Origin: Actinomycetota bacterium
GTDB taxonomy: Bacteria; Actinomycetota; UBA4738; HRBIN12
Direction of reading: 5' to 3'
Assembly (NCBI GenBank): GCA_035640355.1
Contig: DASQWI010000007.1
Coordinates: 10,166 to 74,165, forward strand
Length of the DNA: 64,000 nt
Part shown: positions 7,563 through 46,221 of the stretch, piece after piece
Layout of the letters: each line of letters begins with the position of its first letter
Numbering within the stretch: position 1 is the first letter of the stretch
The notes under the pieces: model-generated
The model's database searches: none
Told to the model about the DNA's origin: nothing
The model's input: the letters and a program-made list of their open reading frames with translations, nothing else
Made by a program: the position numbers and the translations under genes

Positions 7563-7601
7563 GCGGGTGGTACGAACCGACCTGTAGGATTGCGCCCGCT
7601 C

Positions 7602-9551
7602 ATGCCCCGAAAGGCCTTGCCGTTCGCGTTCGTCCTCGCGCTGATCGCAGCGGCATGCGCCTCACCGCAACATGCGGAAGTCGAGTTCGGATCCGGCGCC
7701 CGCTTCGTCCCCTTGGTCGCCGATTCGCTGAACGACGCGGGTCGCCACGTCCAGGTGGCGATCGATCAGGAAGGTCGGCCGCTCGTCGCGTACTTCGCAT
7801 TCGCGGAGGAGACGGCCGAGGGGGTCCTCCCGCAGACCCGACCGGTCGGCGCGCCGTCGATCCCCGGCGTGCTGATGGCGACCCTGAACGAGGACGGGAT
7901 CTGGACGCGCGGTGCGATCGCGCTCCAGGGCCAGATCACGGGCGTCGACGTCCCGTTCAACCCGGCATTCGACCCGGCGATCGCCGATCTCACGGCAGAG
8001 AACGTCACGGGCCTCGACATGGTGGTCGACGGCGATCGGTTCCACGCCGTGTGGGGTTCGAACGCGGGCGCGTTCTACGCGACGGGCTCGACGGACCCGA
8101 GCACGACGGAGCAGGTCCGGATCGAACAGGTGACCGAGACGCCGCCGTACGGGGTGTCGATCGGCGTGGTCGGGAGCACGCCGTGGGTCAGCTACTACAC
8201 GTCGACGTCGGAGCGCGCATCCGTTGAGCTCGCCACGAAGACGGACGACAAGTGGCAGGTCGACGCGATCGCCGACGCCCCCGGCTGTGAGAACTGCCAA
8301 ACCGCCGTGATGGGGGCGGGTGGCGAAATCATCGTCGCGTATGCCGATGGTGCAGGGGTCCAGGTGGCGAGGAACGACGGTGAGAACGGCTGGGTCAGCA
8401 CGGGCGTCGGCCACGGCCTCGGTGGAGAAGGTATCTCCGGCGCGGGCACGGAGGATGGCTTCGCGTTGTCGTTCTACGAGAACGATCGCGTCACGATCCT
8501 CGTGCAGTCGCTGGACGGCGAGGGGACCTCCTCGCAGATCGACGTGAGCCCGGAGTCCGATACCCCGCCCGGCGCCCGAACCTCCATCGCCGTCGAAGAG
8601 AACGGTGACGTCTGGGTCGCCTGGTACGACACGACGCAGGGCGTCGGGTTCGCGTCGGGGCCCGCGGACGACCTCACGCGCATCGACACCGGAGCAGACA
8701 CCGCTACGGGAGCGATGCCGTCTGTGGCCGTCACGCCCGATGGCGAGGCGGTCTACCTCGCCTGGTACGACACCCAGCACGAGGATGTCCTGCTTGGAAG
8801 CTACGGCGAGATCGAGGGCCTCGCGCTCGCCGAACCCAGCCCCGAGCCGACGCCGGAGCCGGCCGCCCCCGCACCGCAGCCGGAGGGCGATTGCACGCCG
8901 GTCTCCGACGGCGTCCTGGAGATCACGGCCCAGGGCCTCGAGTTCGATACCGGTTGTGTCGACGTGGCAGCCGGCGAACCGTTCACGATCGCGTTCACGA
9001 ACGAGGACCCCGACCAGCACAACGTCGCGATCTACCCGAGCCCCGAGGAGCTCACTGATCCGCTGTTCCGGGGAGACATCATCGCTGGCCCCGACACCGT
9101 CGAGTACCCGCCCGTCGACCCGCTCGACCCCGGCGAGTACTACTTCCAGTGCGACGTCCATCCAACGACGATGAACGGCACCGTTGTCGCCGACGAGGGC
9201 GGGGGGGACGGCGGCGGCGGGGGAGGTGGCGCCGGAGGCGGTGAGAGCGGCGGAGGCGCTGGGGGCGACCAGGGCGCGGCCGTCACGGTCACGGCGCAGA
9301 ACATCTCGTTCGACACCGACACCATCGAGCTGCCCACCGAGACCGAGAGCACGATCACCCTCGTGAACGAGGACACCGTGCCGCACAACATCGCGATCTA
9401 CACGGACGACACGGTCGCGGAGAACCTGTTCCGCGGCGAGACCGTCACCGGCGACACGATCGACTACACGGTCCCTCCGCTCGACGCCGGCGAGTACTAC
9501 TTCCAGTGCGACGTCCATCCGACGATGAACGGATCCGCCGTCGTCGGCTGA
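7602..9551 (+). CDS. Secreted lipoprotein with a beta-propeller-like N-terminal region and two tandem C-terminal cupredoxin (type-1 copper-like) domains
   Basis: Signal peptide with lipobox (MPRKALPFAFVLALIAAAC). The track start at 7590 is a TTG; the ATG at 7602 is preferred. The N-terminal region has repeated beta-strand blades. Two homologous ~100 aa C-terminal domains each carry a H...C..H..M ligand set (HNVAIY...YYFQCDVHPTTM and HNIAIY...YYFQCDVHPTM). They are joined by a Gly-rich linker. Confidence 0.75.
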   Translation: MPRKALPFAFVLALIAAACASPQHAEVEFGSGARFVPLVADSLNDAGRHVQVAIDQEGRPLVAYFAFAEETAEGVLPQTRPVGAPSIPGVLMATLNEDGIWTRGAIALQGQITGVDVPFNPAFDPAIADLTAENVTGLDMVVDGDRFHAVWGSNAGAFYATGSTDPSTTEQVRIEQVTETPPYGVSIGVVGSTPWVSYYTSTSERASVELATKTDDKWQVDAIADAPGCENCQTAVMGAGGEIIVAYADGAGVQVARNDGENGWVSTGVGHGLGGEGISGAGTEDGFALSFYENDRVTILVQSLDGEGTSSQIDVSPESDTPPGARTSIAVEENGDVWVAWYDTTQGVGFASGPADDLTRIDTGADTATGAMPSVAVTPDGEAVYLAWYDTQHEDVLLGSYGEIEGLALAEPSPEPTPEPAAPAPQPEGDCTPVSDGVLEITAQGLEFDTGCVDVAAGEPFTIAFTNEDPDQHNVAIYPSPEELTDPLFRGDIIAGPDTVEYPPVDPLDPGEYYFQCDVHPTTMNGTVVADEGGGDGGGGGGGAGGGESGGGAGGDQGAAVTVTAQNISFDTDTIELPTETESTITLVNEDTVPHNIAIYTDDTVAENLFRGETVTGDTIDYTVPPLDAGEYYFQCDVHPTMNGSAVVG

Positions 9552-29460: not shown

Positions 29461-29549
29461 GTCGGAGTGGCGGAACTAGGTAGACGCGCTAGGTTGAGGG
29501 CCTAGTGGGCGCATAGCCCGTGGGGGTTCAAATCCCCCCTCCGACACCA
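29461..29549 (+). tRNA. tRNA-Leu, anticodon GAG
   Basis: Cloverleaf folded by hand. Acceptor stem GTCGGAG/CTCCGAC. Anticodon stem CTAGG/CCTAG with loop TTGAGGG. Long variable arm. T-arm GGGGG-TTCAAAT-CCCCC. Discriminator A and encoded CCA. Confidence 0.85.
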
Positions 29550-29910: not shown

Positions 29911-31295
29911 TCACATGCCCGGGTTCGTCGGGCCGCCGACGTAGTTGTGCCCCTCGCCCCACGTCATGACGGCTCGGTTCCCGAGCAGATCGATCCCCTG
30001 GTAGTCGCCGTAGGGAAACTCGAAGCCGTTCGGGTGCGATTCGGAGCGGTCCGGATCGAACTCGGAGACGCGAACGCTTGGCCCCGTCCACGAGATACCG
30101 CCATCTGTCGACGTGCGATACCAGACGTTCCATCCGTTGTTGTGGTCGAGCGGCGTGCCAAGACGGTCGTCCATCCAGATCACGCTGATCTGGCCCGCGT
30201 TGCCCCCCTCGACCCTCGGGTACAGCGCGTAACACGCCCCACCCGCGCAACCGGTGGAGGTCTTGTCGTCCACGCGACCGACGTATTCCCAATTCTCCGA
30301 CTCTGTGCAGTCGGACCCGGCCGAGCAGCTCGAGAGCTGCACGATGGTGGGGCGGCCGGGTTTGTCGGGGAGGTTGTCCTGCCACACGAGGTACAGGTTT
30401 CCGGCGGCGTCGATGGCGATGTCGTCCTGGGGCCCCCAGTAGGCGAAGCCGCACGAACCGGCCGGCGGACAGTGCGGACCGGCGGTGCCCTCGGCCACCG
30501 GGCAAACTTCGTGTTCGACGTCCCGGCGACCGTCTTCGACACCTGGTAGATCGCCGCGGTGGTGCCGGTGCAACTGCCGAAGCAGTCTCCCCACGCGAAC
30601 CAGGCGTTCCCTGCGGGATCGAGGACGGCCCCTTCCGGAAACGCGACGTGCGTGTCCTCGAGGACGAGGCTCTCCGACCAGGTCGCGCCACCGTCCGACG
30701 ATCGTGACAGAAAGTGGTCCTCGCCAGAGGCGTACATCACGTACACGTTGTCGTCGTGAGCGACGAGCCACGGGTGATCGCACGCCGTGCAGAGCGGCCC
30801 GTTGATCTTGGTCGTGGTCCAGGTGGCGCCGTGATCGGACGACTTGGCGACGAGGACGTCGGTGGCGAAGCCGCTCCCGTACGCGAGGAAGCTCACGTAG
30901 ACGTCCTCGCTGACGTCATCAACCGTCACGACGACGTCCACGACGTTCGGGTAGCCGAGCCGAGGCAGAGCGACGAGCGGGCCGAATGTCCTTCCGGCGT
31001 CGTCGGATGAGCGGACGAAGATCTCGCGTGGGCCGCCCGCGGCGGCGTCGCACGAGGAATCTCCCGGGAAATGGGCGATCCCCACGTAAACGTGCGTACC
31101 TGCCGCGGCGATCTCTGGTTCCCAGTCATCCCCGCCGCAGAACCCCACGTTGGTCGCCCCGGTCGCGGTGAGAGAATCAGGCGGGGCGGCACCGGCGACG
31201 ATGGGAGCCAAGGCGAACACGAGGGCCGCCGCGGCGACCAACGACATCACCGAACGCGTCGCGAAACCCGGACCGGCGGTGCGGATGTGAGTCAC
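29911..31295 (-). pseudogene. BNR/Asp-box repeat (sialidase-like beta-propeller) secreted protein, disrupted by a frameshift near 30510-30535
   Basis: Two overlapping minus-strand ORFs in different frames (30180..31295 and 29911..30783). Each is meaningful only in its 5' or 3' part. Asp-box motifs are SSDDAGRTF, SSDHGATW, SSDGGATW and STDGGISW. The span of 1385 nt is not a multiple of 3. Confidence 0.6.
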
Positions 31296-31532: not shown

Positions 31533-33206
31533 ATGAGACGACGCATCTTTCCGTTGGTGGCCGCGCTCTCCTTTGTCGCCGTCCTGGCGACGCCCTCGCT
31601 CGCCGCGCCGAACGCCCGCGTGACCATCGACGACCGGGCGGGCAGCTACGTGCGCTACGACGGCGGCACCGACACTACGACGAACGGCTGCAGCACGGGA
31701 CGCCGGCAGCAGAACGAGCCGTCGGTCGCGGTCGACCCCTCGAGCCCGAACGTGGTCGTGGCGGGGGCGAACGACTACTGCTCCGCGATCGTGAACGACG
31801 AGGTCTGGACCGGGTACTACCGTTCGACGGACGGTGGGCGCACGTGGACCAACAGCCTGGTCCCCGGGTACCCGGACGACACGTCGGCCGCAGGTACGGC
31901 CTCGCCCGTGCACGGCAGCTGCGCGGCAGCCGGCGACCCCACACAGTCGTTCGACGCCGACGGGAACCTGTTCTACGCCTTCATCTGCTTCAACCGTTCG
32001 GCGCCTGTCAACGGGTCCGTTTACGTCGCGAAGTACACGAACCACGGCGCCACGTACGACCGGACGGTGCTCGTCAAGAGCGGGACGCCGTCCGGGCTGT
32101 TCCTGACCGGGCTGTTCCAGGACAAGATCAACCTCACGGTCGACCAGACTGCAGGCGCCTATGGCGGGAACGTGTACGTCGCTTGGTCGCAGTACGACGG
32201 CTTCGCGCCGACGAACGCCGTCCTGTTCTCGCGGTCCACGAACGGTGGCCTTTCGTTCTCCCGGCCGATCAGGGTCACGCCGAAGGAGCGGGGGACCGCC
32301 TCGTTCGCGGACCTGGCCGTGGGCCCGGAGGGGACGGTGTGGCTCACGTACCTGACCTATCCATCCTCGAGCCGGCCGACGGCGGACATCTGGCTGCAAC
32401 GCTCTACGAGCGGGGGTGTCTCGTTCGAGGCGCCGATCCACGTCGCCTCGATCGAGCTGTTCGACTCGAACCAGTTCGCCGGCACGACGGGGACGGTCGA
32501 CTGCGGCGACGGGCCGTTCGAGTGCGAAAGCGGACTCACGTTCTCGCGGTTCTTCAGCAACTCGGCGGTCACCGCCGACGAGACCGGCGTGCACGTGGTG
32601 TGGGGCTCCGAGCTGCCGAGTGGCCAGTCGAAGGTCTTCGTGCGCAACTCGCCCGACGGCGGTGACACGTGGGGCGAGGCCGAGACCCTCGACGCGGTGA
32701 CACTGGGCCACCAGTGGTTCCCCGATGTTGCGACGGCGGACGGAACGCTTACGGTGATCTTCTACGACTCGAGGGACGACCCGGCCTACTCGCCGAGTCT
32801 GCCGCCGGGCAACACCGGCAGCGGAATGAACTCGGGTGACGTGGTCCAGGCGATGATCGCCGAGTCGACCGACGGCGGTCACAGCTGGACGGAGTCCGTG
32901 GTGAGCACGTCGGGGAGCAACTTCGGGTGGATGACGCACGGGTCGCGCCGGGTCGGGTTCTGGGGCGATTACCTCTATGTCTCGGCTGTGTCTGGCGCGG
33001 TGAACGTCGTATGGACGGATTCCCGGGACCTCGTGGGAGGCGTCGACCCGCGCGAGGGCGCCGACGTGGAGGGCTTTGACGTCCTCCAGCCCTGCACCTA
33101 TGTGCCGAACGACATCGACGCGCCCTCGTACTCGTCACCGACGATCGACGATCCCTGCCTGAGCAAGGGAGGCCTGGACCAGAATATCTACGGCGCGCGC
33201 GTCTAG
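31533..33206 (+). CDS. BNR/Asp-box repeat secreted protein (paralog of the disrupted gene upstream)
   Basis: Signal peptide (MRRRIFPLVAALSFVAVLATPSLA-AP). Multiple Asp-boxes (STDGGRTW, STNGGLSF, STSGGVSF, SPDGGDTW, STDGGHSW). Confidence 0.75.
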   Translation: MRRRIFPLVAALSFVAVLATPSLAAPNARVTIDDRAGSYVRYDGGTDTTTNGCSTGRRQQNEPSVAVDPSSPNVVVAGANDYCSAIVNDEVWTGYYRSTDGGRTWTNSLVPGYPDDTSAAGTASPVHGSCAAAGDPTQSFDADGNLFYAFICFNRSAPVNGSVYVAKYTNHGATYDRTVLVKSGTPSGLFLTGLFQDKINLTVDQTAGAYGGNVYVAWSQYDGFAPTNAVLFSRSTNGGLSFSRPIRVTPKERGTASFADLAVGPEGTVWLTYLTYPSSSRPTADIWLQRSTSGGVSFEAPIHVASIELFDSNQFAGTTGTVDCGDGPFECESGLTFSRFFSNSAVTADETGVHVVWGSELPSGQSKVFVRNSPDGGDTWGEAETLDAVTLGHQWFPDVATADGTLTVIFYDSRDDPAYSPSLPPGNTGSGMNSGDVVQAMIAESTDGGHSWTESVVSTSGSNFGWMTHGSRRVGFWGDYLYVSAVSGAVNVVWTDSRDLVGGVDPREGADVEGFDVLQPCTYVPNDIDAPSYSSPTIDDPCLSKGGLDQNIYGARV

Positions 33207-36018: not shown

Positions 36019-36753
36019 TCAACGCGAGTGCGCCGCGAACGTGGTGTACAGGCGTTCCGCGCGCTCGCGGAGACGTGACACCGACGGCGCTCGGTACCGC
36101 TCGAGCAGCTCAGCCTTCCGCGACTCCTTTTCTTCAGTCGGGCGCCCACGTCCGAGCTCCATCTGTCCACCTCGCCGGTAGGTGTTCGCGTCCCACCGGT
36201 CCATCTCCTCGCGGACGGCGGCGAGATTTGCCTCGGTCGGCTCGAACGGCACGAAGCTGGTGCCGAAGCGCTCGTTCACCCGACGGATCACGCGATCGAG
36301 GTCGGACGTCACGTCCTCGAAGCGGCCGACGACGAACCCGTCGCGGTAGGGGAGCAGCGGCCGGTAGAAGCGCGCGTACCCTCGCAATGCCTGGCCGATC
36401 GTGAGCTCGGGCCACCGGACCACGTACGAGAGCACCGACTGCTCGGGCGGCCGGATCAGCACGAGGGTCGGCGTTCGCATTCCGACGGCGGCGATGACCG
36501 CGCCGGCGGCGTGAACGTGGTGGGCGATGCTCACGGGCTCGGGCTGCACGTGCTGAAACGCGATCACGGTGAACGTGTTGCCCGCCCTGAGGAACCCTTC
36601 GATGCAGAGCTCCGTGGCCTCGGTTGGGAACTCGCCGGTGGTGAAACGGCTGGCGACGGCGGGCCACCTGCCGGCGAACGTTCGGACTTCGCGTCGCGCC
36701 CGATGCCACAGCGTTCGTCCGTCCGGGAGGTGAAGCATCCGGGCATTGTGCAC
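36019..36753 (-). CDS. Hypothetical protein, possibly sulfotransferase-family
   Basis: 244 aa ORF with coding-like composition. Weak resemblance to Stf0-type sulfotransferases (RPPEQSVLSY, RWD). The assignment is uncertain. Confidence 0.4.
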   Translation of the reverse strand: MHNARMLHLPDGRTLWHRARREVRTFAGRWPAVASRFTTGEFPTEATELCIEGFLRAGNTFTVIAFQHVQPEPVSIAHHVHAAGAVIAAVGMRTPTLVLIRPPEQSVLSYVVRWPELTIGQALRGYARFYRPLLPYRDGFVVGRFEDVTSDLDRVIRRVNERFGTSFVPFEPTEANLAAVREEMDRWDANTYRRGGQMELGRGRPTEEKESRKAELLERYRAPSVSRLRERAERLYTTFAAHSR

Positions 36754-36776: not shown

Positions 36777-38414
36777 GTGGCTAGAGTCCACCGGACTCGC
36801 GACGGAGGGGATTACGACGTGAGCGACCGGGACGGCTGGGTGCCTGAGAGTCCCACGTGGTGGCAGCGGGGCATCGTGTACCAGATCTATCCGCGCAGCT
36901 TCTCCGACTCGAACGGTGACGGCGTCGGCGATCTGGCCGGCATCGCCGAGCGGGCCGAGTACCTGCAGTGGCTCGGCGTCGATGCGGTGTGGCTCTCGCC
37001 GATCTACCCCTCGCCGGACGCGGACCTCGGCTACGACATCTCGAACTACGTCGACGTCCATCCCGCGTTCGGCACGCTCGACGACTTCGATCGGCTCGTC
37101 GCTGCGCTGCACAAACACGACGTTCGGCTCGTTCTGGATCTCGTCCCCAACCACACCTCCGACAAGCACCCGTGGTTCGTCGAGAGCCGCGATCCGAGCA
37201 GCCCCAGGCACGACTGGTACGTCTGGCGCGACGGACTGCCGGGCGGCGGCCCTCCGAACAACTGGGTCAGCTACTTCGGGAAGCCAGCGTGGGACTACCT
37301 CGAACCGCCGGGCCAGTGGTACCTGCACTCGTTCGATCCAGGGCAACCCGACCTGAACTGGAACAACCCCGAGGTGCCGGCGGCGATCCACGACGCCATG
37401 CGTTTCTGGCTCGACCGGGGCGTCGACGGGTTCCGCGTCGACGTGCTGTGGCTGCTCGGCAAGGACCCGGAGCTTCGGGACAACCCGCTCGACCCCGACT
37501 GGCACGACGGGTTACCGGCGCGGTTGCAGCTGGTGCGGCGGTACTCCGAGGACGGGCCCGATGCCCACGCGCGGGCTCGGTCGCTCCGATCGGTGGTGGA
37601 TGAGTACCCGGAGCGCGTGATGATCGGCGAGGTCGTTCTCCCGCCCGAACGCGCCGTCACGTACCACGGCGAGAATCTCGACGAAGCGCACATCCCGCAC
37701 AACTTCACGTTGACCGAGCTCCGCGAGTGGTCGGCGGACGAGGTGCGTTCGGCGGTCGATGCGTACGACGCGCTCGTGCCACCCGGCGCGTGGCCGAACT
37801 GGCTCCTCGGCGATCACGATTTCTCACGGATCGCGACGCGCGTCGGTCCGGACCTGTTGCGCGTGACGCACATGCTGCTGCTCACGCTGCGCGGAACGCC
37901 GACCTGGTACTACGGCGACGAGCTCGGCATGCGGAACGCGGTCGTTCCGGCCGGACATCCGCTCGCCGATCCGCAGGCGTTCGGCGCGCCAGGGCTCGAC
38001 AGGCTCCCCGCGCGTTCGCCGATGCAGTGGTCGTCCGGCCCGAACGCAGGCTTCTCGATCGCCGAGCCGTGGGTACCGATCGCGTCGAACGATCCCGCCC
38101 TCACGGTGGAAGGGCAGCGGGACGATCCGGCGAGCACGCTGAGTCTGTTCCGTTCGCTCGTCCGGCTGCGTAGGGAAACGCCGGCGCTCGCCGTCGGTGC
38201 GTACCGCTCGCTGGAGGCGCCGACGGGGGTCTTCTCCTACGAACGAACGCACCACCACGGTACGGCCGTGCAGATCCACCTGAACTTCGGCGACGAACAC
38301 CGCGAGATCGAACCGCCGGCGGGCGCCGAGGTCCTCCTCTCGACCATCCCGGGCGTCGGTGCGGTCGCGACGAGGCTCCGCCCCTACGAAGGTGTCATCG
38401 TGAGCGCGTCGTGA
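36777..38414 (+). CDS. GH13 alpha-glucosidase / oligo-1,6-glucosidase-like (alpha-amylase family)
   Basis: WWQRGIVYQIYPRSFSDSNGDGVGDLAGI...DAVWLSPIYPSP...GFRVDV catalytic-region motifs of the GH13 oligo-1,6-glucosidase / trehalose synthase subfamily. Confidence 0.85.
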   Translation: MARVHRTRDGGDYDVSDRDGWVPESPTWWQRGIVYQIYPRSFSDSNGDGVGDLAGIAERAEYLQWLGVDAVWLSPIYPSPDADLGYDISNYVDVHPAFGTLDDFDRLVAALHKHDVRLVLDLVPNHTSDKHPWFVESRDPSSPRHDWYVWRDGLPGGGPPNNWVSYFGKPAWDYLEPPGQWYLHSFDPGQPDLNWNNPEVPAAIHDAMRFWLDRGVDGFRVDVLWLLGKDPELRDNPLDPDWHDGLPARLQLVRRYSEDGPDAHARARSLRSVVDEYPERVMIGEVVLPPERAVTYHGENLDEAHIPHNFTLTELREWSADEVRSAVDAYDALVPPGAWPNWLLGDHDFSRIATRVGPDLLRVTHMLLLTLRGTPTWYYGDELGMRNAVVPAGHPLADPQAFGAPGLDRLPARSPMQWSSGPNAGFSIAEPWVPIASNDPALTVEGQRDDPASTLSLFRSLVRLRRETPALAVGAYRSLEAPTGVFSYERTHHHGTAVQIHLNFGDEHREIEPPAGAEVLLSTIPGVGAVATRLRPYEGVIVSAS

Positions 38415-38426
38415 AGGGCATCGGGA

Positions 38427-39104
38427 TCACCTGATGCCGACCTCGTCGAGGTGCGCCAGCAGATCGGCGGTGTCCTCGTACACGCGGTACGCGCCGGCGC
38501 GCTCGAGCTCCTCGCGCCCGTACCCGCCGGACAAGACCCCGACGCCCAGGGCGCGCGCACGCCGAGCGGCCAGGAGATCCCAGATACTGTCGCCCACCAC
38601 GACGCAGTCCTCGACCGCGATGACGAGCTTCTCCGCCGCGGTGAGGAACAGATCGGGATCGGGCTTGGCCCTGGGGACGAGTTCGCGTGTGACAACCGGA
38701 ACGTCGTCGGGGACGTTGAGGAGCTCGATCGCCGGGCCTGCCGATTCCCGGTAGCCGCTCGTCGCGATGGCCCAAGGGGTGCCGCCGTCCGTCAGTGCCC
38801 GAAGCAGCTCGAGCGCCCCCGGCAGCGGTCTGACCTGCGAGCCGCGGCGGGCGTAGGCCTCGGCGTGGAGCCGCCGGAGCAGGGCTGCGTCCTCGGCGGT
38901 CACCTCCCGACCGGTCTCGCGAAGGAGGGCGTTCGCGAACAATCCGCCTGACATGCCGACCTTTCGGTGGATCCGCCACACCGACAGCTCGATCCCGGCC
39001 GCCTCGAGCGCCTCGCGCCACGCGAGGACGTGTTGGTAGACGCTGTCCACGAGCGTTCCGTCCAGGTCGAACAGGAACGCCTGCTGCCGGTCCACGCCGC
39101 GCAT
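38427..39104 (-). CDS. HAD-superfamily hydrolase, subfamily IA (beta-phosphoglucomutase-like)
   Basis: FLFDLDGTLVDS motif I, and downstream HAD motifs (GIATSG, GDSIWD). The start is taken at the second Met. Confidence 0.75.
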   Translation of the reverse strand: MRGVDRQQAFLFDLDGTLVDSVYQHVLAWREALEAAGIELSVWRIHRKVGMSGGLFANALLRETGREVTAEDAALLRRLHAEAYARRGSQVRPLPGALELLRALTDGGTPWAIATSGYRESAGPAIELLNVPDDVPVVTRELVPRAKPDPDLFLTAAEKLVIAVEDCVVVGDSIWDLLAARRARALGVGVLSGGYGREELERAGAYRVYEDTADLLAHLDEVGIR

Positions 39105-39370
39105 CCTAAAGGTGGTTGGGCGCTCGGCCGACTGGGTATCGAGCACACGATGCAGCCGAACCAGTCACGTCGCCGCGACGACCCGATCGTTCGCGAAGCC
39201 ATCGCGAGCGGCGTCCTGCTGCTGGCGACGGTCGGTCTGCTCGTGCTCGGCTTCATCGGTCAAGCCGCCCTGTTCTGATCGATTACCTCCGCGCGAATAC
39301 CCACGCTCGGTGGCGCGCGAGGCACCGACGCTTCGCCGTATGCTCTCGCGCGTCTCGAGAGGGGAAACGC

Positions 39371-41047
39371 GTGACGGGTCGAGCGACGTTCGCGCTCGTC
39401 AACGGTGCGGTGCACACGGTCGATCCGAGGCGACCGCGCGCGCAGGCCGTCGCCGTGGCGGACGGGAAGATCGCCGCGATCGGCACCGACGACGACGTGC
39501 GCGAGGTCATCACGTCCGGTACCGAGGTCCTCGACCTGAAGGGCCGGACGGTGCTCCCCGGCTTTCAGGACGCGCACGTGCACCCCCCGAGCGGTGGTCT
39601 GGAGATGTTGCGCTGCAACCTGTCCGACGCGTACTCGATCCCGGAGTACGAGCGCATCATCGCCACGTACGCGGCCGAGCATCCCGAGGTCGAATGGATC
39701 CTCGGCGGCGGCTGGTCCATGGACGTGTTCCCGCGAGGTAACCCGCCGAAGGACGTCCTCGACCGACTGATTCCGGATCGGCCCGTGATGCTTCCGAGCC
39801 GCGACGGCCACAGCGTGTGGGTCAACTCCAGGACGCTGGAGATCGCCGGCATCACGAAGGACACGCCGGATCCGGTCGACGGCGTGATCGTCCGCGACGA
39901 CGGCGGCGAGCCGTGGGGGACACTCCACGAGGGCGCCGTGTTCCTCGCGGAGAAGTTCGCGCCGGCGGAGACGACCGAGGACTGGATCGCCGGGCTCCGC
40001 GTCGCGCAAGGCTATCTCCACTCGCTCGGCATCACGGCGTGGCAGGACGCGATCGTCGGCGTCAACGAGGTGTACCGGACGTTGGACGCGTACCTCCGGT
40101 TCGCAGGAGCGGATGAGCTCACCGCAAGGGTGGTCGGTGCGCTGTGGTGGGACCGGTACCGAGGCGAGGAGCAGATCGACGAACTCCTCGAGGCGCGCGA
40201 ACGCGGCCGCGAGGGCCGGTTCGCGGCGACGAGCGTGAAGATCATGCAGGACGGCGTGATCGAGAACTTCACCGCGGGGGTGCTCGAGCCGTACCTCGAC
40301 GAGAGCGGGAAGCCGACCGACAACCGCGGGAAGTCGTTCGTCGAACCCGAAGCGTTGAAACGCTACGTGTCGCGGCTCGACGCCGAGGGGTTCCAGGTCC
40401 ACTTCCACGCGATCGGGGAGCGCGCCGTTCGAGAGTCACTCGACGCGGTCGAGGCCGCTCGGAACGCGAACGGGATGAACGACCACCGCCACCACATCGC
40501 GCACATCCAGATCATCCACCCCGACGACATCCCGCGGTTCGCCCAGCTCGGCGTCGCCGCGAACATGCAGCCGCTGTGGGCGCAGAACGAACCGCAGATG
40601 CTCAACCTGACGATCCCGTTCCTCGGCGAGGTGCGCTCGAGCTGGCAATATCCGTTCGGCTCGCTGATCCGGTCCGGGGCGACGCTCGTCGCCGGGAGCG
40701 ACTGGTCGGTCTCGAGCGCCAACCCGATCGAGGAGATCCACGTCGCGGTGAACAGGAAGGGTTTCGGCGGTCAGACATACGCCCCGGAAGGCGACTGGAC
40801 GAGGGTGCCGTTCATCCCCGGCGAGGCGGTGGATCTCGAGACGGCCATCCGCGCGTTCACGTTGGGATCGGCGTTCGTGAACCATCTCGACGACGTCACC
40901 GGGTCGCTCGAGCCTGGCAAGTACGCGGACCTGATCGTGCTGGACCGCGACCTGTTCTCCATCCCCGCGGACGAGATCCACGCGGCGCGGGTGGTGCTGA
41001 CGCTCGTCGAGGGCGAGCGCGTCTTCGCGTCACCCGACCTTTCCTGA
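39371..41047 (+). CDS. Amidohydrolase family 3 (YtcJ-like) metal-dependent hydrolase
   Basis: The GTG at 39371 begins VTGRATFALVNGAVHTVD...VLPGFQDAHVHP. It also carries the C-terminal HAIGERAV and AGSDW motifs of Amidohydro_3. The track ORF is extended to 39116. Confidence 0.8.
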   Translation: MTGRATFALVNGAVHTVDPRRPRAQAVAVADGKIAAIGTDDDVREVITSGTEVLDLKGRTVLPGFQDAHVHPPSGGLEMLRCNLSDAYSIPEYERIIATYAAEHPEVEWILGGGWSMDVFPRGNPPKDVLDRLIPDRPVMLPSRDGHSVWVNSRTLEIAGITKDTPDPVDGVIVRDDGGEPWGTLHEGAVFLAEKFAPAETTEDWIAGLRVAQGYLHSLGITAWQDAIVGVNEVYRTLDAYLRFAGADELTARVVGALWWDRYRGEEQIDELLEARERGREGRFAATSVKIMQDGVIENFTAGVLEPYLDESGKPTDNRGKSFVEPEALKRYVSRLDAEGFQVHFHAIGERAVRESLDAVEAARNANGMNDHRHHIAHIQIIHPDDIPRFAQLGVAANMQPLWAQNEPQMLNLTIPFLGEVRSSWQYPFGSLIRSGATLVAGSDWSVSSANPIEEIHVAVNRKGFGGQTYAPEGDWTRVPFIPGEAVDLETAIRAFTLGSAFVNHLDDVTGSLEPGKYADLIVLDRDLFSIPADEIHAARVVLTLVEGERVFASPDLS

Positions 41048-41165
41048 CCTGTGGTCAGCGTCGTCGTTGCGGCGCACGACGCCCCGCCGCCACGATGACC
41101 GCATCGCGCGACGTCGGCCGTCAACGGCTGCTCGCCGCCGGCCCGAACAGACGAGGAGGCCATCC

Positions 41166-42317
41166 ATGCCGTTCGACATGAGCCAGGTTCAGCGCGGTGC
41201 CCGGAACCGGCGCACGCCGTACTACGAAGCGACGCAGCGGTACGAACCGATGGGATTCACCGTCTACAACCACATGTATTTCCCGATCCGGTTCGACACG
41301 TTCGAAGCCGAGTTCGACGCGTTGCTGAACGGCGTCACGTTGTGGGACGTGTCGGTCGAGCGGTGCCTGGAGATCTCCGGGCCCGACGGGTTCCGTTTCG
41401 CGCAGCTCCTTACCCCGCGCGATCTGTCGAAGTGCGCGGTCGGTCAGGCGAAGTACGTGTTGATCTGTGACGGCGACGGAGGCCTCGTCAACGATCCGGT
41501 CCTCACGCGCATGGACGAGAACACGTTCTGGTTCGCGCTGGCGTCGTCGGACGCGTTGTTGTTCGCGCGAGGCCTCAAGAACGCCTACCCGGATCTGAAC
41601 GTGACGATCAAGGAGGCCGACGTCGCGCCGCTCCAGGTTCAGGGACCTCGGTCCAAGGATCTGATGGTCAAGCTCCTCGGCGAGGAGATCCTCGAGCTCA
41701 AGTACTACTGGTGGACCGAGGCCAAGATCGCCGGCGCGCCGGTCGTCATCACCCGAACGGGATGGACGTCCGAGGTGGGATACGAGGTCTATCTCACGGA
41801 CACGACGCGCGGCACCGACGTGTACGAGGCGATCATGTCGGCAGGCGAGGAGTTCGACATCAAACCAACGGGTCCATCGGATATCCGGCGCATCGAGGGG
41901 GCCATCTTCAACTGGGGCGCCGACATGACGTACGAGAACAACCCGCTCGAGATGGGACTGGAGCGACTCGTCGCGTGGGATCTGCCCGACGACGCGAGCC
42001 TCTCGCTCCCAGCGCTGCGGCAGATCAGGGACCGAGGCGTCTCCCGCAGGATCAACGGCATCGAGATCGACGGCGACCCCTTCCCCGAGCTCAACAACGT
42101 CAAGTGGCCCGTCACCGACGGCGGTGAGCGCATCGGCAAGGTCACCTCGGCGATCTACTCGCCGCGGCTGGAGCGGAACATCGGGTTCGTGTGGCTGCCG
42201 GCGGACCGCTCCACGCTGGGGACGAGCGTCACGGTCGACACGGAGTGGGGTACCCGGGCGGCCACGGTCGTGGAGATGCCGTTCGTCGACCCGGACAAGC
42301 GCATCCCGGTCTCCTGA
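41166..42317 (+). CDS. GcvT-fold aminomethyltransferase-family protein (THF-dependent demethylase, LigM/DesA/DmdA-like), paralog 1
   Basis: RRTPYYEAT...FTVYNHMYFP...LWDVSVER...GPDGFRFAQLLTPRDL...GQAKY...NDPV folate-binding GCV_T fold. Lacks the FAD domain of oxidase-fused forms. A GAGGAGG RBS precedes the ATG at 41166. Confidence 0.8.
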   Translation: MPFDMSQVQRGARNRRTPYYEATQRYEPMGFTVYNHMYFPIRFDTFEAEFDALLNGVTLWDVSVERCLEISGPDGFRFAQLLTPRDLSKCAVGQAKYVLICDGDGGLVNDPVLTRMDENTFWFALASSDALLFARGLKNAYPDLNVTIKEADVAPLQVQGPRSKDLMVKLLGEEILELKYYWWTEAKIAGAPVVITRTGWTSEVGYEVYLTDTTRGTDVYEAIMSAGEEFDIKPTGPSDIRRIEGAIFNWGADMTYENNPLEMGLERLVAWDLPDDASLSLPALRQIRDRGVSRRINGIEIDGDPFPELNNVKWPVTDGGERIGKVTSAIYSPRLERNIGFVWLPADRSTLGTSVTVDTEWGTRAATVVEMPFVDPDKRIPVS

Positions 42318-42422
42318 GCCGCGCCTTCCCTCGAGCCAGAACGCACGTTGCAGCCGAGCGGCCGTTTGAACGATGATTCAACCCGCCCGCCGCGAGGGCG
42401 GCGGCCGAGGAGCGCGACGGTG

Positions 42423-43604
42423 ATGGCGAACGAACGCCCAGAGATGCTCGAGCAGAGCGCGACGATCTACTTCGGGCCGTGGTACAGACGCTCGCCGTAC
42501 TTCGAGGCGACCCGCCGGGCCGGGTGCACCGCATACGACGTGTACAACCACATGCTGCTGCCGGCGTACTTCGACGACCCAGTCACCGAGTACTGGGCCC
42601 TCCTCAACGACGTCACGGTATGGGACGTCGCCGTGGAACGCACCGTGGAGATCTCCGGCAAGGACGCCGACCGATTCGTCGACATGCTCACGTGCCGCGA
42701 CCTGACGAAGTGCGCGGTGAAGCAGGGCAAGTACATGATCGTCACGGCGCCGGACGGCGGCATCGTGAACGATCCCGTGCTGCTCCACGTCGGCGACAAC
42801 CGCTGGTGGATGCAGCTCGCCGACTCGGACGCCGGTCTGTACGCGCTCGGCGTGGCCACGCAGGCGAACGTGGACGTGGACGTCTCGTACCCGCACGCGT
42901 ACCCGATGCAGGTGCAGGGCGCCAAGGCGGCGAAGGTACTCGAGAAGCTCGTGGGCGCGGCGATCTACGACCTGAAGTACTACTGGTGCGACTGGTTCGA
43001 CATCAAGGACATCCCCGTTCTGATCAGCCGAACGGGATGGACGGCGGTGCGGGGGTTCGAGATCAACCTGCTCGACCCCGACCGCGGCGACGACCTGTGG
43101 AACGCGGTCTTCGAGGCGGGCGACGAGCTCGGCATCCGGGCGGTTGCACCGGTCGAGGCTCGTCGCATCGAGGCCGGGATCATGAACTACAACTCCGACA
43201 TGACGCACGAGGACACGCCTCTGCACATCATGGGACTCGAGCACCTCGTCGAGGACCAGCCGCAGGACTACATCGGCAAACGAGCGCTCGAGGACCTCAA
43301 GGCCCGCGGCGTCGACCGCAAGCTCGTGGGGATCGAATGGGAAGGCAACGAGCTGCCCGCCGAGCTGTCGTGGTTCTGGCCCGTCGTTCGAAACGGCGAG
43401 CGGGTGGGGAGGGTCACCGACGCGATCTGGTCTCCACGGCTCGAGAGGAACATCGGATACGCCTGGGTCCCGATCGATCTGGCCGGACCGGGGAACGCCC
43501 TCCAGGTGGAGTCGGAGCACGGACCCCTCACCGTCATGACGACGGCGATCCCCTTCGTCGACGCGCGGAAGGAGGTGCCGGCGAGCGACCTGCGGGCCAG
43601 CTGA
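42423..43604 (+). CDS. GcvT-fold aminomethyltransferase-family protein (THF-dependent demethylase-like), paralog 2
   Basis: Same motif set as the preceding gene (RRSPYFEAT...YDVYNHMLLP...VWDVAVERTVEISGKDADRFVDMLTCRDL). It is a clear tandem paralog, with roughly 45-50% identity by eye. Confidence 0.8.
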   Translation: MANERPEMLEQSATIYFGPWYRRSPYFEATRRAGCTAYDVYNHMLLPAYFDDPVTEYWALLNDVTVWDVAVERTVEISGKDADRFVDMLTCRDLTKCAVKQGKYMIVTAPDGGIVNDPVLLHVGDNRWWMQLADSDAGLYALGVATQANVDVDVSYPHAYPMQVQGAKAAKVLEKLVGAAIYDLKYYWCDWFDIKDIPVLISRTGWTAVRGFEINLLDPDRGDDLWNAVFEAGDELGIRAVAPVEARRIEAGIMNYNSDMTHEDTPLHIMGLEHLVEDQPQDYIGKRALEDLKARGVDRKLVGIEWEGNELPAELSWFWPVVRNGERVGRVTDAIWSPRLERNIGYAWVPIDLAGPGNALQVESEHGPLTVMTTAIPFVDARKEVPASDLRAS

Positions 43605-43630
43605 ACGTCCCGCGTCGCGCCCCGGCCCGT

Positions 43631-44074
43631 ATGGCTCGCACGCTCGACCGAAGGCCCCCGCCCACCGTTCCGCCGCCGCGCGGGTTCCGCAGGGCGATCG
43701 TCCTTGTCGAACGCGCCATCAAGGAGGCCGTGTGGGACTGCCGGATGTGTGGGCAGTGCATCCTTCACTCCACCGGCCTCGTCTGCCCGATGCGGTGTCC
43801 GAAGAACCTGCGGAACGGCCCGTGCGGCGGCACCCTCCAGGACGGTCACTGCGAGGTCGTTCCCGACATGAAGTGCGTGTGGGTGTCCGCGTGGGAGGGC
43901 TCGCGGACGCTGCCGCTGTGGCGCGACCATATCGAGCGCGTTGAGCCACCGGTCGACTGGCGACTGCAGGAGACGTCGTCGTGGGAGAACCTGCTGACGC
44001 GGCGTGACCAGCACGTGCCGGCGGCGTGGGACCCGGCGAGACGACAGCCGGCGAGCACGAAGCGCGAGCGATGA
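43631..44074 (+). CDS. MTHFR C-terminal-domain-like zinc-ribbon protein (MetV-like partner of MetF)
   Basis: 147 aa Cys-rich protein (CRMCGQCILHSTGLVCPMRCPKNLRNGPCGG...C) resembling the MTHFR_C / MetV small subunit. The stop overlaps the metF-like start (ATGA). Confidence 0.55.
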   Translation: MARTLDRRPPPTVPPPRGFRRAIVLVERAIKEAVWDCRMCGQCILHSTGLVCPMRCPKNLRNGPCGGTLQDGHCEVVPDMKCVWVSAWEGSRTLPLWRDHIERVEPPVDWRLQETSSWENLLTRRDQHVPAAWDPARRQPASTKRER

Positions 44075-45024
44075 GCGCCGCTCCGTCGGCGCGGAGCGAC
44101 CTCCACCGCTTGCTCCTTAGCCGCGAGTTCGTGGTGACGGCGGAGCTCCAGGCCACTGACTCGGCCGACCCCCGATCGGTCGCGGAGCTCGCCGATGTCT
44201 TTCGGGGGAAGGTGGACGCCGTCAACGCCACCGACAACAGCTCGGCGCACCCGCATCTCTCGCCGATGGCGGCCGCGCACCTGCTCTCCGACGCCGGGAT
44301 CGAACCGATCATGCAGTTCGTATGCCGAGACCGGAACCGGCTTGCGCTGCAGGCCGACATGCTCGGCGCAGCTACGCTCGGCGTTCGGAACGTCTTGTGC
44401 ATGACCGGCGATGACGTGAGCGTCGGAGATCATCCCGAGGCGAAGCCGATCTACGACATCGACTCGATCCACCTGCTCCGGATCGCCCGTGTGCTGCGCG
44501 ACGAGGGCAGGTACGTGTCGGGACGGCAGCTGACGCAGCCGCCGGAGTTCCTCATCGGAGCCGTCGAGAACCCGTTCGCACCCCCGCTGGACTTCCGGCC
44601 GATGCGCCTGGGGAAGAAGATCCAAGCCGGCGCCGAGTTCGTCCAGACTCAGATCTGCTTCAACCTGTCGAAGATGCGTTTGTTCATGGCTCGATGTGCG
44701 GATCTCGGCCTGCTGGAGCACGCCTGGGTGCTCGCCGGAGTGTTCGTGCCGCGGTCGGCCAAGGCCGTCCGGTACCTGCGCGACCAGGTCCCGGGGATCG
44801 ACGTTCCCGATGAGGTCGTCGACCGTCTCGACTCGGTCCCGCCGGATCGGCAACGGGACGAAGGCATCGGACTCGCGCTCGACATCGTCGAGCAGGTTCG
44901 CGCGATCCCCGGCGTAAGCGGCCTGCACCTGATGACGATCCGGAACGAGGAGGCGATCGTCGAGGTCATCGAGCGCGCCGGGCTGCTTCCCCGGCCGAGC
45001 TCCGTTCCGCAGGCCGTCGGCTGA
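44071..45024 (+). CDS. metF: Methylenetetrahydrofolate reductase family protein (acetogen/MetF-type, paired with a MetV-like gene)
   Basis: TIM-barrel MTHFR motifs (VTAELQATDSADP...VNATDNSSAHPHLSPMAAAHLL...FVCRDRNRLALQADMLGAATLGVRNVLCMTGDD). The ATG at 44071 overlaps the upstream stop. Confidence 0.8.
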   Translation: MSAAPSARSDLHRLLLSREFVVTAELQATDSADPRSVAELADVFRGKVDAVNATDNSSAHPHLSPMAAAHLLSDAGIEPIMQFVCRDRNRLALQADMLGAATLGVRNVLCMTGDDVSVGDHPEAKPIYDIDSIHLLRIARVLRDEGRYVSGRQLTQPPEFLIGAVENPFAPPLDFRPMRLGKKIQAGAEFVQTQICFNLSKMRLFMARCADLGLLEHAWVLAGVFVPRSAKAVRYLRDQVPGIDVPDEVVDRLDSVPPDRQRDEGIGLALDIVEQVRAIPGVSGLHLMTIRNEEAIVEVIERAGLLPRPSSVPQAVG

Positions 45025-45135
45025 GCGCCCGCGCTCGATGCCTTGTGGATCTCGGACACTCTTCCGTGTGTTCGCGAACGTTCCCGGAGGGCGTGTCGAA
45101 CGCCCTGTGAACCGAAGAAACTGGAGAACAAGCCC

Positions 45136-46221
45136 ATGACCAAGCCAATGAACAGGTTCCTCGTCTCGTCAATCGCGTCGGTCGCGCTGCTCCTCGCGGC
45201 GTGCACGTCGAGCACCACGGATGCGGACAACGCCCAGGCCCGAGAACTGCCCACGAGTGCACCCATCCCCACGAGCCGCGGCACGGTGGCCGACGTCGTC
45301 GACCAGGTCCTCCCGTCGGTCGTGAACGTCAAGAGAGACGGCGGACAGGGGACGGGGTTCGTCGTGCGCGAGGACGGCGTGATCGTGACGAACTTCCATG
45401 TCGTCGAGGGTGCGTCCCGGCTCAGAGTCTTCACCTCGGACGAGCAGCCCCAAGAGTTCGACGCGAGGGTGATCGGCGGCGACATACAAGCAGACCTGGC
45501 CGTGCTCGACGTCGACGCCAAGGGGCTGCCGGCGGTTCCGCTCGGTGACTCGGGCGAGCTGCGGCTCGGTCAGCAGGTCGTGGCACTCGGGTATGCGCTG
45601 GGACTAGAGGGAGGGCCGTCGGTGACGTCCGGCATCGTGTCGTCACTCACCCGGAGGATCAGCGTTCGCGATCCCGGTTGCCCGCTCGAGGAGTGCGGCT
45701 CGGATCAGGAGCGCGTGTACACGGACGTGATCCAGACCGACGCCGCCATCAATCCGGGCAACTCGGGCGGTCCGCTGGTCGACATGGCGGGCAACGTCGT
45801 CGGCATCAACACTGCCGGCACGAGCGCCGCCGAGAACATCGGGTTCGCCATCCAGATCAGCTCCGTCACGCCGACGATCACGCAGGCCGCCGAGGAGCCC
45901 GGTGCGCCCGTCGCGTTCATGGGGATCGGTTCCATCGACGCGTCCGATCCGGAATTTCAGTTCACAACCGGAACCTCTGTCGAGGAGGGCGCTGGCATCG
46001 TCAATGTCGTCCCGGGCGGCCCGGCGGAGGACGCCGGCGTCGAAGAAGGAGACGTCGTCGTCACATTCGATGGCGAGGCGATCCCGGACTCCGCGGCGCT
46101 CGGCGAAGCGATCCGGTCGCACGAACCGGGAGACACTGTTGAATTCGAGGTGGTTCGTCCCACCGGTGAGCGGGTGACGCTCTCCGTCGAGCTCGGCGTG
46201 AATCCCGCTGCCATCGCTTGA
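45136..46221 (+). CDS. htrA: HtrA/DegP-family trypsin-like serine protease with a C-terminal PDZ domain (lipoprotein)
   Basis: Lipobox LLLAAC. Catalytic-triad context (TNFHVVEG, ADLAVLDV, GNSGGPLVD) and a PDZ region at the C-terminus. Confidence 0.85.
   Translation: MTKPMNRFLVSSIASVALLLAACTSSTTDADNAQARELPTSAPIPTSRGTVADVVDQVLPSVVNVKRDGGQGTGFVVREDGVIVTNFHVVEGASRLRVFTSDEQPQEFDARVIGGDIQADLAVLDVDAKGLPAVPLGDSGELRLGQQVVALGYALGLEGGPSVTSGIVSSLTRRISVRDPGCPLEECGSDQERVYTDVIQTDAAINPGNSGGPLVDMAGNVVGINTAGTSAAENIGFAIQISSVTPTITQAAEEPGAPVAFMGIGSIDASDPEFQFTTGTSVEEGAGIVNVVPGGPAEDAGVEEGDVVVTFDGEAIPDSAALGEAIRSHEPGDTVEFEVVRPTGERVTLSVELGVNPAAIA

Follow-up and report, generated by a model that had tools for sequence, protein, structure and literature searches.

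Two genes of the GcvT fold without any fused oxidase, followed by the genes of a two-subunit methylenetetrahydrofolate reductase (MTHFR), raise the question of what chemistry such an arrangement serves in an uncultured actinobacterium. The arrangement lies in a 64,000-nucleotide (nt) stretch of contig DASQWI010000007.1 (hereafter, the window; G+C content ~67%), where positions 39371-45024 hold five intact, co-directional genes, as judged from open reading frames (ORFs), codon-position G+C, and Pfam matches: a YtcJ-type amidohydrolase, two GcvT-like paralogues (A and B), a MetV-like cysteine-rich protein, and a MetF-type MTHFR (Table 1). An earlier interpretation made from the sequence alone (hereafter, the sequence-only reading) had described these genes as a tightly spaced, tetrahydrofolate (THF)-dependent demethylation module. 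The ORFs and domains hold up in full, and the tight spacing does so for the last three genes, with 26 nt between B and metV and a 4-nt overlap between metV and metF (ATGA, the metF start lying inside the metV stop); it does not extend to the gaps between the amidohydrolase and A (118 nt) or between A and B (105 nt). On balance, the evidence leans toward A and B moving methyl groups from onium compounds to THF, giving 5-methyl-THF that MetV and MetF (MetVF) would reoxidize. The five-gene stretch represents one variant of a locus that is conserved in a large, uncultured lineage of Actinomycetota found mostly in soil.

Family placement of the two GcvT-fold proteins

A and B are 46% identical to each other, and B is an ancient paralogue of A. 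Both consist of the Pfam domains GCV_T and GCV_T_C, with no further domain and no fused oxidase, in agreement with the earlier description of two stand-alone proteins that lack an oxidase or FAD domain. The best NCBIfam match for both is the DmdA model NF009133 (331.4 bits for A and 313.6 for B; cut-off 410), and the second best is the model of the trimethylamine N-oxide demethylase Tdm, matched through its C-terminal domain (185 and 163 bits; cut-off 1100). Scores against the GcvT models TIGR00528 (144.4 and 136.4 bits; cut-off 235.85) and PRK00389 (169 and 161.2 bits; cut-off 300) are lower, and those against the DesA (56.9 and 46.7 bits; cut-off 800) and LigM (41.9 and 50.6 bits; cut-off 580) models are the lowest, with matches that span the N-terminal ~200 residues only. 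The best match in the PDB is DmdA of Pelagibacter (3TFH; 236 bits for A and 224 for B), which is covered nearly over the full length and takes in residues 9-373 of A.

A neighbor-joining tree with 300 bootstraps was computed from A and B of several loci, their nearest cultured relatives, two DmdA proteins, a Haloarcula homologue, the C-terminal domain of Tdm, and three GcvT proteins (from E. coli, B. subtilis, and P. horikoshii). A and B form separate clades, each in 300/300 bootstraps, and the verified DmdA proteins of Pelagibacter and Phaeobacter form an exclusive clade (300/300) that leaves A and B outside. The larger group made up of A, B, DmdA, the DmdA-like proteins of Alphaproteobacteria, and the Haloarcula homologue stands apart from GcvT and Tdm with a bootstrap support of 299-300 of 300; within it, the tree gives no firm branching order for A, B, the alphaproteobacterial proteins, and DmdA. 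The alignment is in accord with the deep split, given that YNHM or YNRM and an N-D-P motif are common to the whole DmdA-type branch, whereas GcvT and Tdm contain a D-D dipeptide in that position. The Trp of the GW motif is replaced by Tyr in Phaeobacter DmdA, so this residue does not discriminate. On these comparisons, A and B belong to a DmdA-like, predicted methyl-transferring branch and are not DmdA, GcvT, or LigM/DesA.

Membership in each of the three established families was considered separately and rejected. With respect to verified DmdA, both proteins score below the cut-off (331 and 314 versus 410 bits), fall outside the DmdA clade, and are only 32-35% identical to its members in the trimmed alignment. 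With respect to LigM/DesA, the label chosen in the sequence-only reading, scores of 42-57 bits (versus 580 and 800) and lengths of 383-393 amino acids (aa), compared to about 450-470 aa, do not allow it to be retained. The motifs on which this label had been based (RRxPY.EAT, YNHM, and L/VWDV) are present, as RRTPYYEAT and RRSPYFEAT, YNHM, and LWDV and VWDV, and turn out to be those of the DmdA clade. As to bona fide GcvT, public databases name A and B 'glycine cleavage system aminomethyltransferase T' or 'glycine cleavage T C-terminal barrel domain-containing protein', an annotation that is generic or wrong. That annotation is what speaks for A and B being ordinary glycine-cleavage T proteins; this explanation is effectively excluded by scores of 136-169 bits, below both GcvT cut-offs, by the separation from GcvT at 300/300, and by the lack of gcvH and gcvP in the 64-kb window. 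The sequence-only reading had named clustering of both paralogues with GcvT, along with a gcvH or gcvP elsewhere in the regulon, as one of two outcomes that would dispose of a demethylase module; the clustering is not seen, which favors the module.

Whether or not the LigM/DesA label applies, A and B could act in the manner of these enzymes and remove methyl groups from methoxy-aromatic compounds, such as vanillate and syringate. The soil habitat, the presence of two paralogues reminiscent of LigM plus DesA, and a coupling to MTHFR like that in the ligM-metF-ligH cluster would all suit aryl O-demethylation, and the chemistry, transfer of a methyl group to N5 of THF, is identical. We nevertheless regard it as very unlikely, considering the LigM and DesA scores, a length ~70-80 residues below that of LigM, DesA, and BrdA, the absence of ring-cleavage or aromatic-acid transport genes nearby, and a Rieske oxygenase associated with the locus in relatives (see below) that scores best with GbcA rather than with aromatic oxygenases.

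The closest biochemical precedent is DmdA, an enzyme by which the methyl group of a sulfonium donor is passed to THF in a redox-neutral reaction, yielding 5-methyl-THF (PMC5395565). A and B resemble the DmdA proteins of Pelagibacter ubique (3TFH), Ruegeria, and Phaeobacter in the combination of GCV_T and GCV_T_C, the size of ~370-390 aa, the lack of an oxidase, and the possession of YNHM and NDP and, by analogy, presumably in redox-neutral methyl transfer to THF. They differ in sequence, as described above, and in forming clades of their own, in the lack of dmdB, dmdC, and dmdD neighbors anywhere in the window, and in the host, which belongs to a soil lineage of Actinomycetota, not to the marine Alphaproteobacteria.

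The nearest cultured relatives of A, which we took from a collection of plasmids and chromids, are uncharacterized proteins with 45-51% identity, compared to ~35% for the true Phaeobacter DmdA. Two of these, on plasmids of Loktanella (L083, 8977-13124; L-numbers denote retrieved homologous loci) and Phaeobacter inhibens P51 (L084, 9004-13090), are DmdA-like genes with ~50% identity to A and ~35% to true DmdA in clusters that also encode Lrp, OsmC, an enoyl-CoA hydratase, and an acyl-CoA synthetase, in the order Lrp / GcvT-like / OsmC / enoyl-CoA hydratase / acyl-CoA synthetase. This layout resembles that of the dmdA-B-C-D cluster and may represent a second pathway of demethylation similar to that of dimethylsulfoniopropionate (DMSP) in roseobacters. 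On a Lichenihabitans plasmid, a relative of A is flanked by an annotated MTHFR on one side and purU-folD on the other; no MetV is annotated next to this MTHFR, whose identity to the MetF of the window is 22%. The Haloarcula homologue is similarly placed, with DHFR on one side and an annotated MTHFR on the other. The Lichenihabitans arrangement is understandable only if 5-methyl-THF is what the GcvT-like enzyme yields; it shares the logic of a demethylase plus an MTHFR with the window, although the partner genes of the alphaproteobacterial DmdA-like genes (Loktanella, Phaeobacter, and Lichenihabitans) differ from those of the module described here.

MetV, MetF, and their linkage to the DmdA-like genes

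The metV-metF genes are a true MetVF-type pair. Eight Cys residues of MetV are invariant, including in the homologues from Paracoccus, Sinorhizobium, and Azoarcus, and MetF retains, in the alignment, the equivalents of the catalytic residues E28, D120, and Q183 of the E. coli MTHFR. Identity to the proteobacterial MetVF pairs is 48-49% for MetF and 57-64% for MetV. Together with the matches to PF12225 and PF02219, these features uphold the identification of both proteins in the sequence-only reading. Among solved structures, the best MTHFR match is the human enzyme, at 58 bits, so that no close structure is available in the PDB, and no S6MTHFR-type structure appeared among the PDB matches for MetF even at E = 10.

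The characterized representatives of this type come from acetogens. In Clostridium ljungdahlii, MetV contains two [4Fe-4S] clusters, MetF contains flavin mononucleotide (FMN), and the enzyme does not use NAD(P)H (PMC8760232). The window pair is like these type II enzymes (PMC8760232) in the joint presence of PF12225 and PF02219, in the Cys-rich MetV, and in the lack of adjacent rnfC2, hdr, or mvhD; it is unlike them in that MetF is only ~35% identical to the Acetoanaerobium MetF and in its demethylase, not Wood-Ljungdahl, context. The Acetoanaerobium locus bears no annotation and was left out of the context comparisons. More distant relatives of MetF (41-45% identity) are found in MetV-MetF clusters with a 1374-1394-aa ORF that, as read from sequence alone, is HdrA-like; we take these clusters to be of the Hdr/MvhD type of anaerobes. 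They differ from the window also in the size of MetV (222 aa in L161 and L166, compared to 147 aa). The host of the window is probably aerobic.

A metagenome scan with MetF retrieved 80 loci, 36 of which were informative, that is, had a MetF at least 60% identical to that of the window and sufficient upstream sequence. In 35 of these 36, metV is located directly 3' of a DmdA-like gene (B in 33 loci and A in 2). The exception, L134 (3724-6921), has the order amidohydrolase-metV-metF-htrA, with A and B missing. Gene order varies among related loci: L059 has A-V-F-B, L125 has Rieske-A-V-F without B, and in L145 (1411-5251) a 30%-identical GcvT-like gene precedes A-V-F in an unrelated neighborhood. 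The linkage between demethylase and MetVF genes thus outlives rearrangement and relocation, and this part of the earlier proposal is strengthened by its recurrence across varied gene orders and contexts. The neighbors of the relocated cluster in L145 include ORFs of 561 and 221 aa.

The nearest cultured MetVF pairs, from aerobic or facultative Proteobacteria, are those of Paracoccus methylovorus p1 (L086), Sinorhizobium meliloti pSymB (L087), and Azoarcus sp. KH32C pAZKH (L088). They are encoded in clusters with an MttB-family methyltransferase, a corrinoid protein, DUF1638, a methyl-THF:cobalamin methyltransferase, and a RamA-type activase, to which the Azoarcus cluster adds betaine ABC transporter genes and purU. 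Going by the annotated roles of these genes, the MTHFR in the three clusters can only be fed with methyl-THF, and MetVF appears, on annotation, to be the methyl-THF-oxidizing arm of an aerobic, corrinoid-dependent demethylation of quaternary amines; we found no paper on these MttB/corrinoid/MetVF clusters. They are like the window locus in placing MetVF, with its eight conserved Cys, beside enzymes predicted to load methyl groups of quaternary amines onto THF, and unlike it in that the transfer depends on a corrinoid, a machinery that is replaced as a whole by a GcvT-fold enzyme here.

The pairing of a demethylase and a methyl-THF-oxidizing MTHFR is an arrangement already known from Sphingobium, Methylorubrum, and Rhizorhabdus (PMC11868366). 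The ligM-metF-ligH cluster of Sphingobium SYK-6 and the other 'type 4' pairs (CmuAB, Dmt) are like the window locus in that a gene for a THF demethylase adjoins one for a dedicated MTHFR (PMC11868366). In contrast to the two-subunit MetVF of the window, the 'type 4' MTHFRs (S6MTHFR family) are described as lacking an iron-sulfur (Fe-S) subunit and possessing three specific motifs, located in loop beta2-alpha3 (Leu-Pro), helix alpha8, and loop beta8-alpha11 (Pro-Phe) (PMC11868366), and their partners are LigM, DesA, Dmt, or the corrinoid-dependent CmuAB, compared to DmdA-like proteins here, where ligH, purU, and folD are lacking. In the same scheme, Fe-S heteromeric MTHFRs constitute 'type 3', which is assumed to be reductive, and only 'type 4' enzymes are taken to partner demethylases (Yu et al. 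2025, PMC11868366). The window MetF departs from 'type 4' in having an Fe-S subunit, encoded by the translationally coupled metV, and agrees with it in its adjacency to demethylase genes. Jointly with the MttB clusters, the window locus suggests that MTHFRs of the Fe-S type are not only reductive.

In the literature searched, which covered actinobacterial DmdA, demethylases linked to MetV/MetF, betaine demethylation with THF, and MTHFR alongside MttB, neither the locus nor a coupling of DmdA-like enzymes to MetVF is described. The sequence-only reading, which did not recognize the combination as a described operon in an actinobacterial-type genome, is consistent with this outcome: the enzyme classes and their logic are known, and the components, their pairing, and the host are new.

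Conservation, proposed mechanism, and candidate substrates

A scan with A of one genome per species identified at least 345 stretches encoding relatives of A. Conservation was quantified in the best 80 of these, with informative loci only as denominators. All 80 come from metagenome-assembled genomes (MAGs) of uncultured Actinomycetota, many from soil catalogues, and the identity of A ranges from 80 to 98%. In 70 of 73 loci, B is found no more than 2.6 kb downstream of A; the amidohydrolase is upstream of A in 58 of 62, and the htrA-trmI-mpa context is preserved in 63 of 80. In L012, L029, and L060, A and B are located in a second core region near ileS, dksA, and ftsZ, with a gene for a Rieske protein and one for an S-adenosylmethionine-dependent methyltransferase upstream of A and no amidohydrolase. 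metV-metF is present in 32 of 66 loci and is, by this occurrence, an accessory part of the locus. The median identity to the window, for loci with and without metVF, respectively, is 84% and 84% for A, 85% and 70% for B, 88% and 79% for Mpa, 76% and 64% for TrmI, and 61% and 50% for HtrA; A thus appears to be under unusually strong constraint for a presumed catabolic enzyme. L071 contains A (80% identical) alone among unrelated genes, on a contig binned as the non-actinobacterial 'Candidatus Kutchimonas denitrificans', which could reflect horizontal transfer or a binning error.

The mechanism that we favor runs as follows. A and B would each transfer a methyl group from an onium donor (a quaternary ammonium or sulfonium compound) directly to N5 of THF in a redox-neutral reaction, the product, by analogy with DmdA, being 5-methyl-THF. 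MetVF, the genes of which probably form a single transcription unit with B, would act chiefly as an oxidizing enzyme, turning 5-methyl-THF into 5,10-methylene-THF and passing the electrons via FMN and two Fe-S clusters to an acceptor. From there, the methyl carbon would pass into the general pool of one-carbon units, and part of the 5-methyl-THF may go directly to methionine synthesis. Support for this mechanism comes from the placement of A and B in the DmdA-like branch, the linkage of A to B (70 of 73 loci, and a second genomic context), the linkage of both to MetVF (35 of 36 loci), and the relatives of A that adjoin an annotated MTHFR in Lichenihabitans and Haloarcula.

Several observations weigh against demethylation for catabolic purposes, and some of them fit a housekeeping or anabolic role, in which MetVF is the ordinary MTHFR for methionine and A and B either top up 5-methyl-THF from a common or endogenous methyl donor or use it to methylate an acceptor. 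A is conserved as much as or more than the Mpa ATPase and is embedded in a core block that extends from uvrA, uvrC, gap, and pgk to the Pup-proteasome genes, a setting that would suit housekeeping at least as well as catabolism. L134 keeps metVF without A or B, the MetVF enzymes studied in acetogens are physiologically reductases (PMC8760232), and folD and purU are absent from the window, as are a pathway transporter (peptide ABC transporters are found upstream) and a regulator. Furthermore, the demethylase of Sphingobium SYK-6 is the only source of methyl-THF for methionine (PMC11868366). The housekeeping role nonetheless appears unlikely: A and B are retained in a sub-lineage without metVF at the locus; the nearest cultured MetVF pairs belong to catabolic methyl-transfer clusters, with purU in that of Azoarcus; a relative of A has as its neighbors a set of methyl-oxidation genes, namely, an annotated MTHFR, purU, and folD; and no metH is present in the 64-kb window and no metE nearby. 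Three further points count against the favored mechanism: metVF is missing from this locus in about half of the relatives, the link to GbcA described below is a best hit only (171-188 bits versus a cut-off of 670) for a gene that the window does not contain, and no production of methanethiol from DMSP was seen in Mycobacterium isolates that possess a dmdA homologue (PMC6309047).

The clues to the substrate come from relatives. In 22 of 70, a gene of ~396 aa that is absent from the corresponding gap of the window (41048-41165) lies between the amidohydrolase and A; it encodes an oxygenase with Rieske and Ring_hydroxyl_A domains (for example, L066:3636-4832 and L012:4609-5922). The best NCBIfam model for this protein is GbcA, at 171-188 bits (cut-off 670), approximately twice the scores of aromatic dioxygenases, and no reductase partner was identified among its immediate neighbors. 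A common motif connects this gene to B. The inverted repeat TTGAACGATGATTCAA upstream of B, which is unique in the 64-kb window when up to 3 mismatches are allowed, follows a pattern, TTGAA-N6-TTCAR, found upstream of B in 66 of 75 loci, and its perfect form, TTGAAC-N4-GTTCAA, occurs 42-220 nt upstream of the Rieske tblastn match in 8 loci and also upstream of B in L012 and L029. The repeat is probably the operator of a regulator linking B and the Rieske gene, which we infer to be under shared control; no regulator matching TTGAAC/GTTCAA was found in the literature.

The GbcA-like oxygenase in 22 of 70 relatives, along with the betaine/MttB context of the nearest cultured MetVF, makes N-methyl onium compounds the favored donors. 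The sequence-only reading had suggested methoxylated aromatics, DMSP, or a betaine; the comparative data favor the last, do not support the first, and make DMSP itself less likely, considering the Mycobacterium result and the lack, as of 2018, of any functional dmdA known in Gram-positive bacteria (PMC6309047). Within the favored mechanism, betaine-like N-methyl onium compounds as the substrate class have no better than even odds.

The same oxygenase brings up another possibility, namely, that A and B capture a hydroxymethyl or iminium group released by an oxidative N-demethylase, forming 5,10-methylene-THF that MetVF then reduces. Apart from the GbcA-like gene beside A and the motif it shares with B, this would be compatible with the C-terminal domain of Tdm being the second-best NCBIfam match (163-185 bits). 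We consider such capture distinctly improbable: most genomes, including that of the window, have A and B without the oxygenase; no oxidase is fused or adjacent; A and B lack the DD dipeptide found in GcvT and Tdm, possess instead the NDP and YNHM of the DmdA branch, and group with DmdA, not Tdm, in the tree; and the pairing of their relatives with MTHFR would be needless if methylene-THF were the product.

Methyl transfer from onium compounds followed by oxidation in MetVF would, if correct, endow an abundant, widespread group of uncultured Actinomycetota from soil (A is carried by at least 345 species-level genomes) with a dedicated, conserved route for harvesting methyl groups into folate, and would extend the design of demethylase plus methyl-THF-oxidizing MTHFR to DmdA-like enzymes and iron-sulfur MetVF in aerobes. 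Metagenome surveys pick up such genes as 'dmdA-like' or 'gcvT', so that their identity affects the counts of DMSP and glycine-cleavage genes in soil, and A and B provide two specific proteins in which to look for a new substrate specificity. In a more ambitious interpretation, which we put forward tentatively and consider doubtful, A and B would be an unrecognized family that demethylates quaternary ammonium osmolytes of the glycine betaine type by direct, cofactor-free transfer to THF, is nearly universal in the lineage, and is coupled to an aerobic MetVF acting as a methyl-THF dehydrogenase. This would amount to a fourth route beside BHMT, the Rieske system GbcAB, and the corrinoid system MtgB, and would contradict the view of Fe-S-type MTHFRs as reductive only.

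Predicted transcription units, the amidohydrolase, and surroundings

The start codons of the five genes, picked from their Shine-Dalgarno context, are those of the NCBI proteins HYZ12709.1 to HYZ12713.1 (MAG 'Actinomycetota bacterium'). The two wider gaps in the locus contain conserved promoter-like and palindromic motifs (Table 1). In alignments of the intergenic regions, TGACY-N3-5-RGTCA, the pattern of the palindrome TGACCTGTGGTCA, is found upstream of A in 71 of 82 loci, and TTGYNN-N16-19-AYSATR, the pattern of the promoter-like elements, upstream of A in 69 of 82 and upstream of B in 40 of 75. This architecture suggests three transcription units: the amidohydrolase, A, and B-metV-metF. 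A scan for sigma-70 and terminator consensus sequences found nothing above chance. No riboswitch was detected with Rfam (in the whole window at gathering thresholds and in 38300-45300 at E up to 1), the only Rfam match being a tRNA at 29461-29546.

Table 1. Genes and candidate regulatory elements of the locus (window coordinates unless a locus label is given)
Feature	Position	Strand	Details
YtcJ-type metal-dependent amidohydrolase	39371..41047	+	GTG start, 558 aa; Amidohydro_3 324.8 bits
DmdA-like GcvT-fold protein A	41166..42317	+	383 aa; GCV_T 143.9 + GCV_T_C 62.8 bits
DmdA-like GcvT-fold protein B	42423..43604	+	393 aa; GCV_T 121.2 + GCV_T_C 52 bits
MetV-like Cys-rich electron-transfer subunit	43631..44074	+	147 aa; PF12225 92.7 bits
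MetF-type methylenetetrahydrofolate reductase	44071..45024	+	317 aa; PF02219 112.5 bits (cut-off 24)
Palindrome TGACCTGTGGTCA	41045..41057		overlaps amidohydrolase stop codon; candidate protein-binding site or hairpin
Promoter-like element of A (TTGCGG, spacer, ACGATG)	41067..41097	+	pattern conservation
Promoter-like element of B (TTGCAG, spacer, ACGATG)	42348..42375	+	same pattern as that of A
Operator-like inverted repeat TTGAACGATGATTCAA	42366..42381		begins 57 nt upstream of B start codon
Inverted-repeat occurrences elsewhere	L047:6521, L063:6634, L069:6581, L079:6683, L012:16316		

The palindrome and the promoter-like element in the gap suggest that A is transcribed apart from the amidohydrolase. 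The sequence-only reading was correct that an Amidohydro_3 gene precedes A, and counted it as part of the module; we do not, because the amidohydrolase and A are neighbors within one syntenic block, a promoter-like element precedes A, and A and B occur elsewhere (L012, L029, and L060) without the amidohydrolase. It is probably a separately transcribed neighbor, linked by synteny only. The protein has a His-x-His metal motif, no NCBIfam family comes near its cut-off, and its best PDB matches are the uncharacterized hydrolases 3IGH and 3ICJ.

The surroundings of the five genes are a core actinobacterial block. Upstream are uvrA, uvrC, gap, pgk, peptide ABC transporters, an alpha-amylase-family gene, and a divergent HAD hydrolase gene; downstream are genes for an HtrA-like protease, trmI, mpa, dop, pup, proteasome subunits, pafA, pafBC, tatAC, and a helicase. 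Elsewhere in the window, ORFs at 31533-33206 (+), 36019-36753 (-), and 29911-30783 (-) have strong third-position G+C and no significant Pfam match, a 557-aa ORF among the Pfam-less ones showing a weak Tli3 match only. Between uvrA and uvrC, positions 7563-9551 encode a 662-aa protein with a C-terminal cupredoxin domain.

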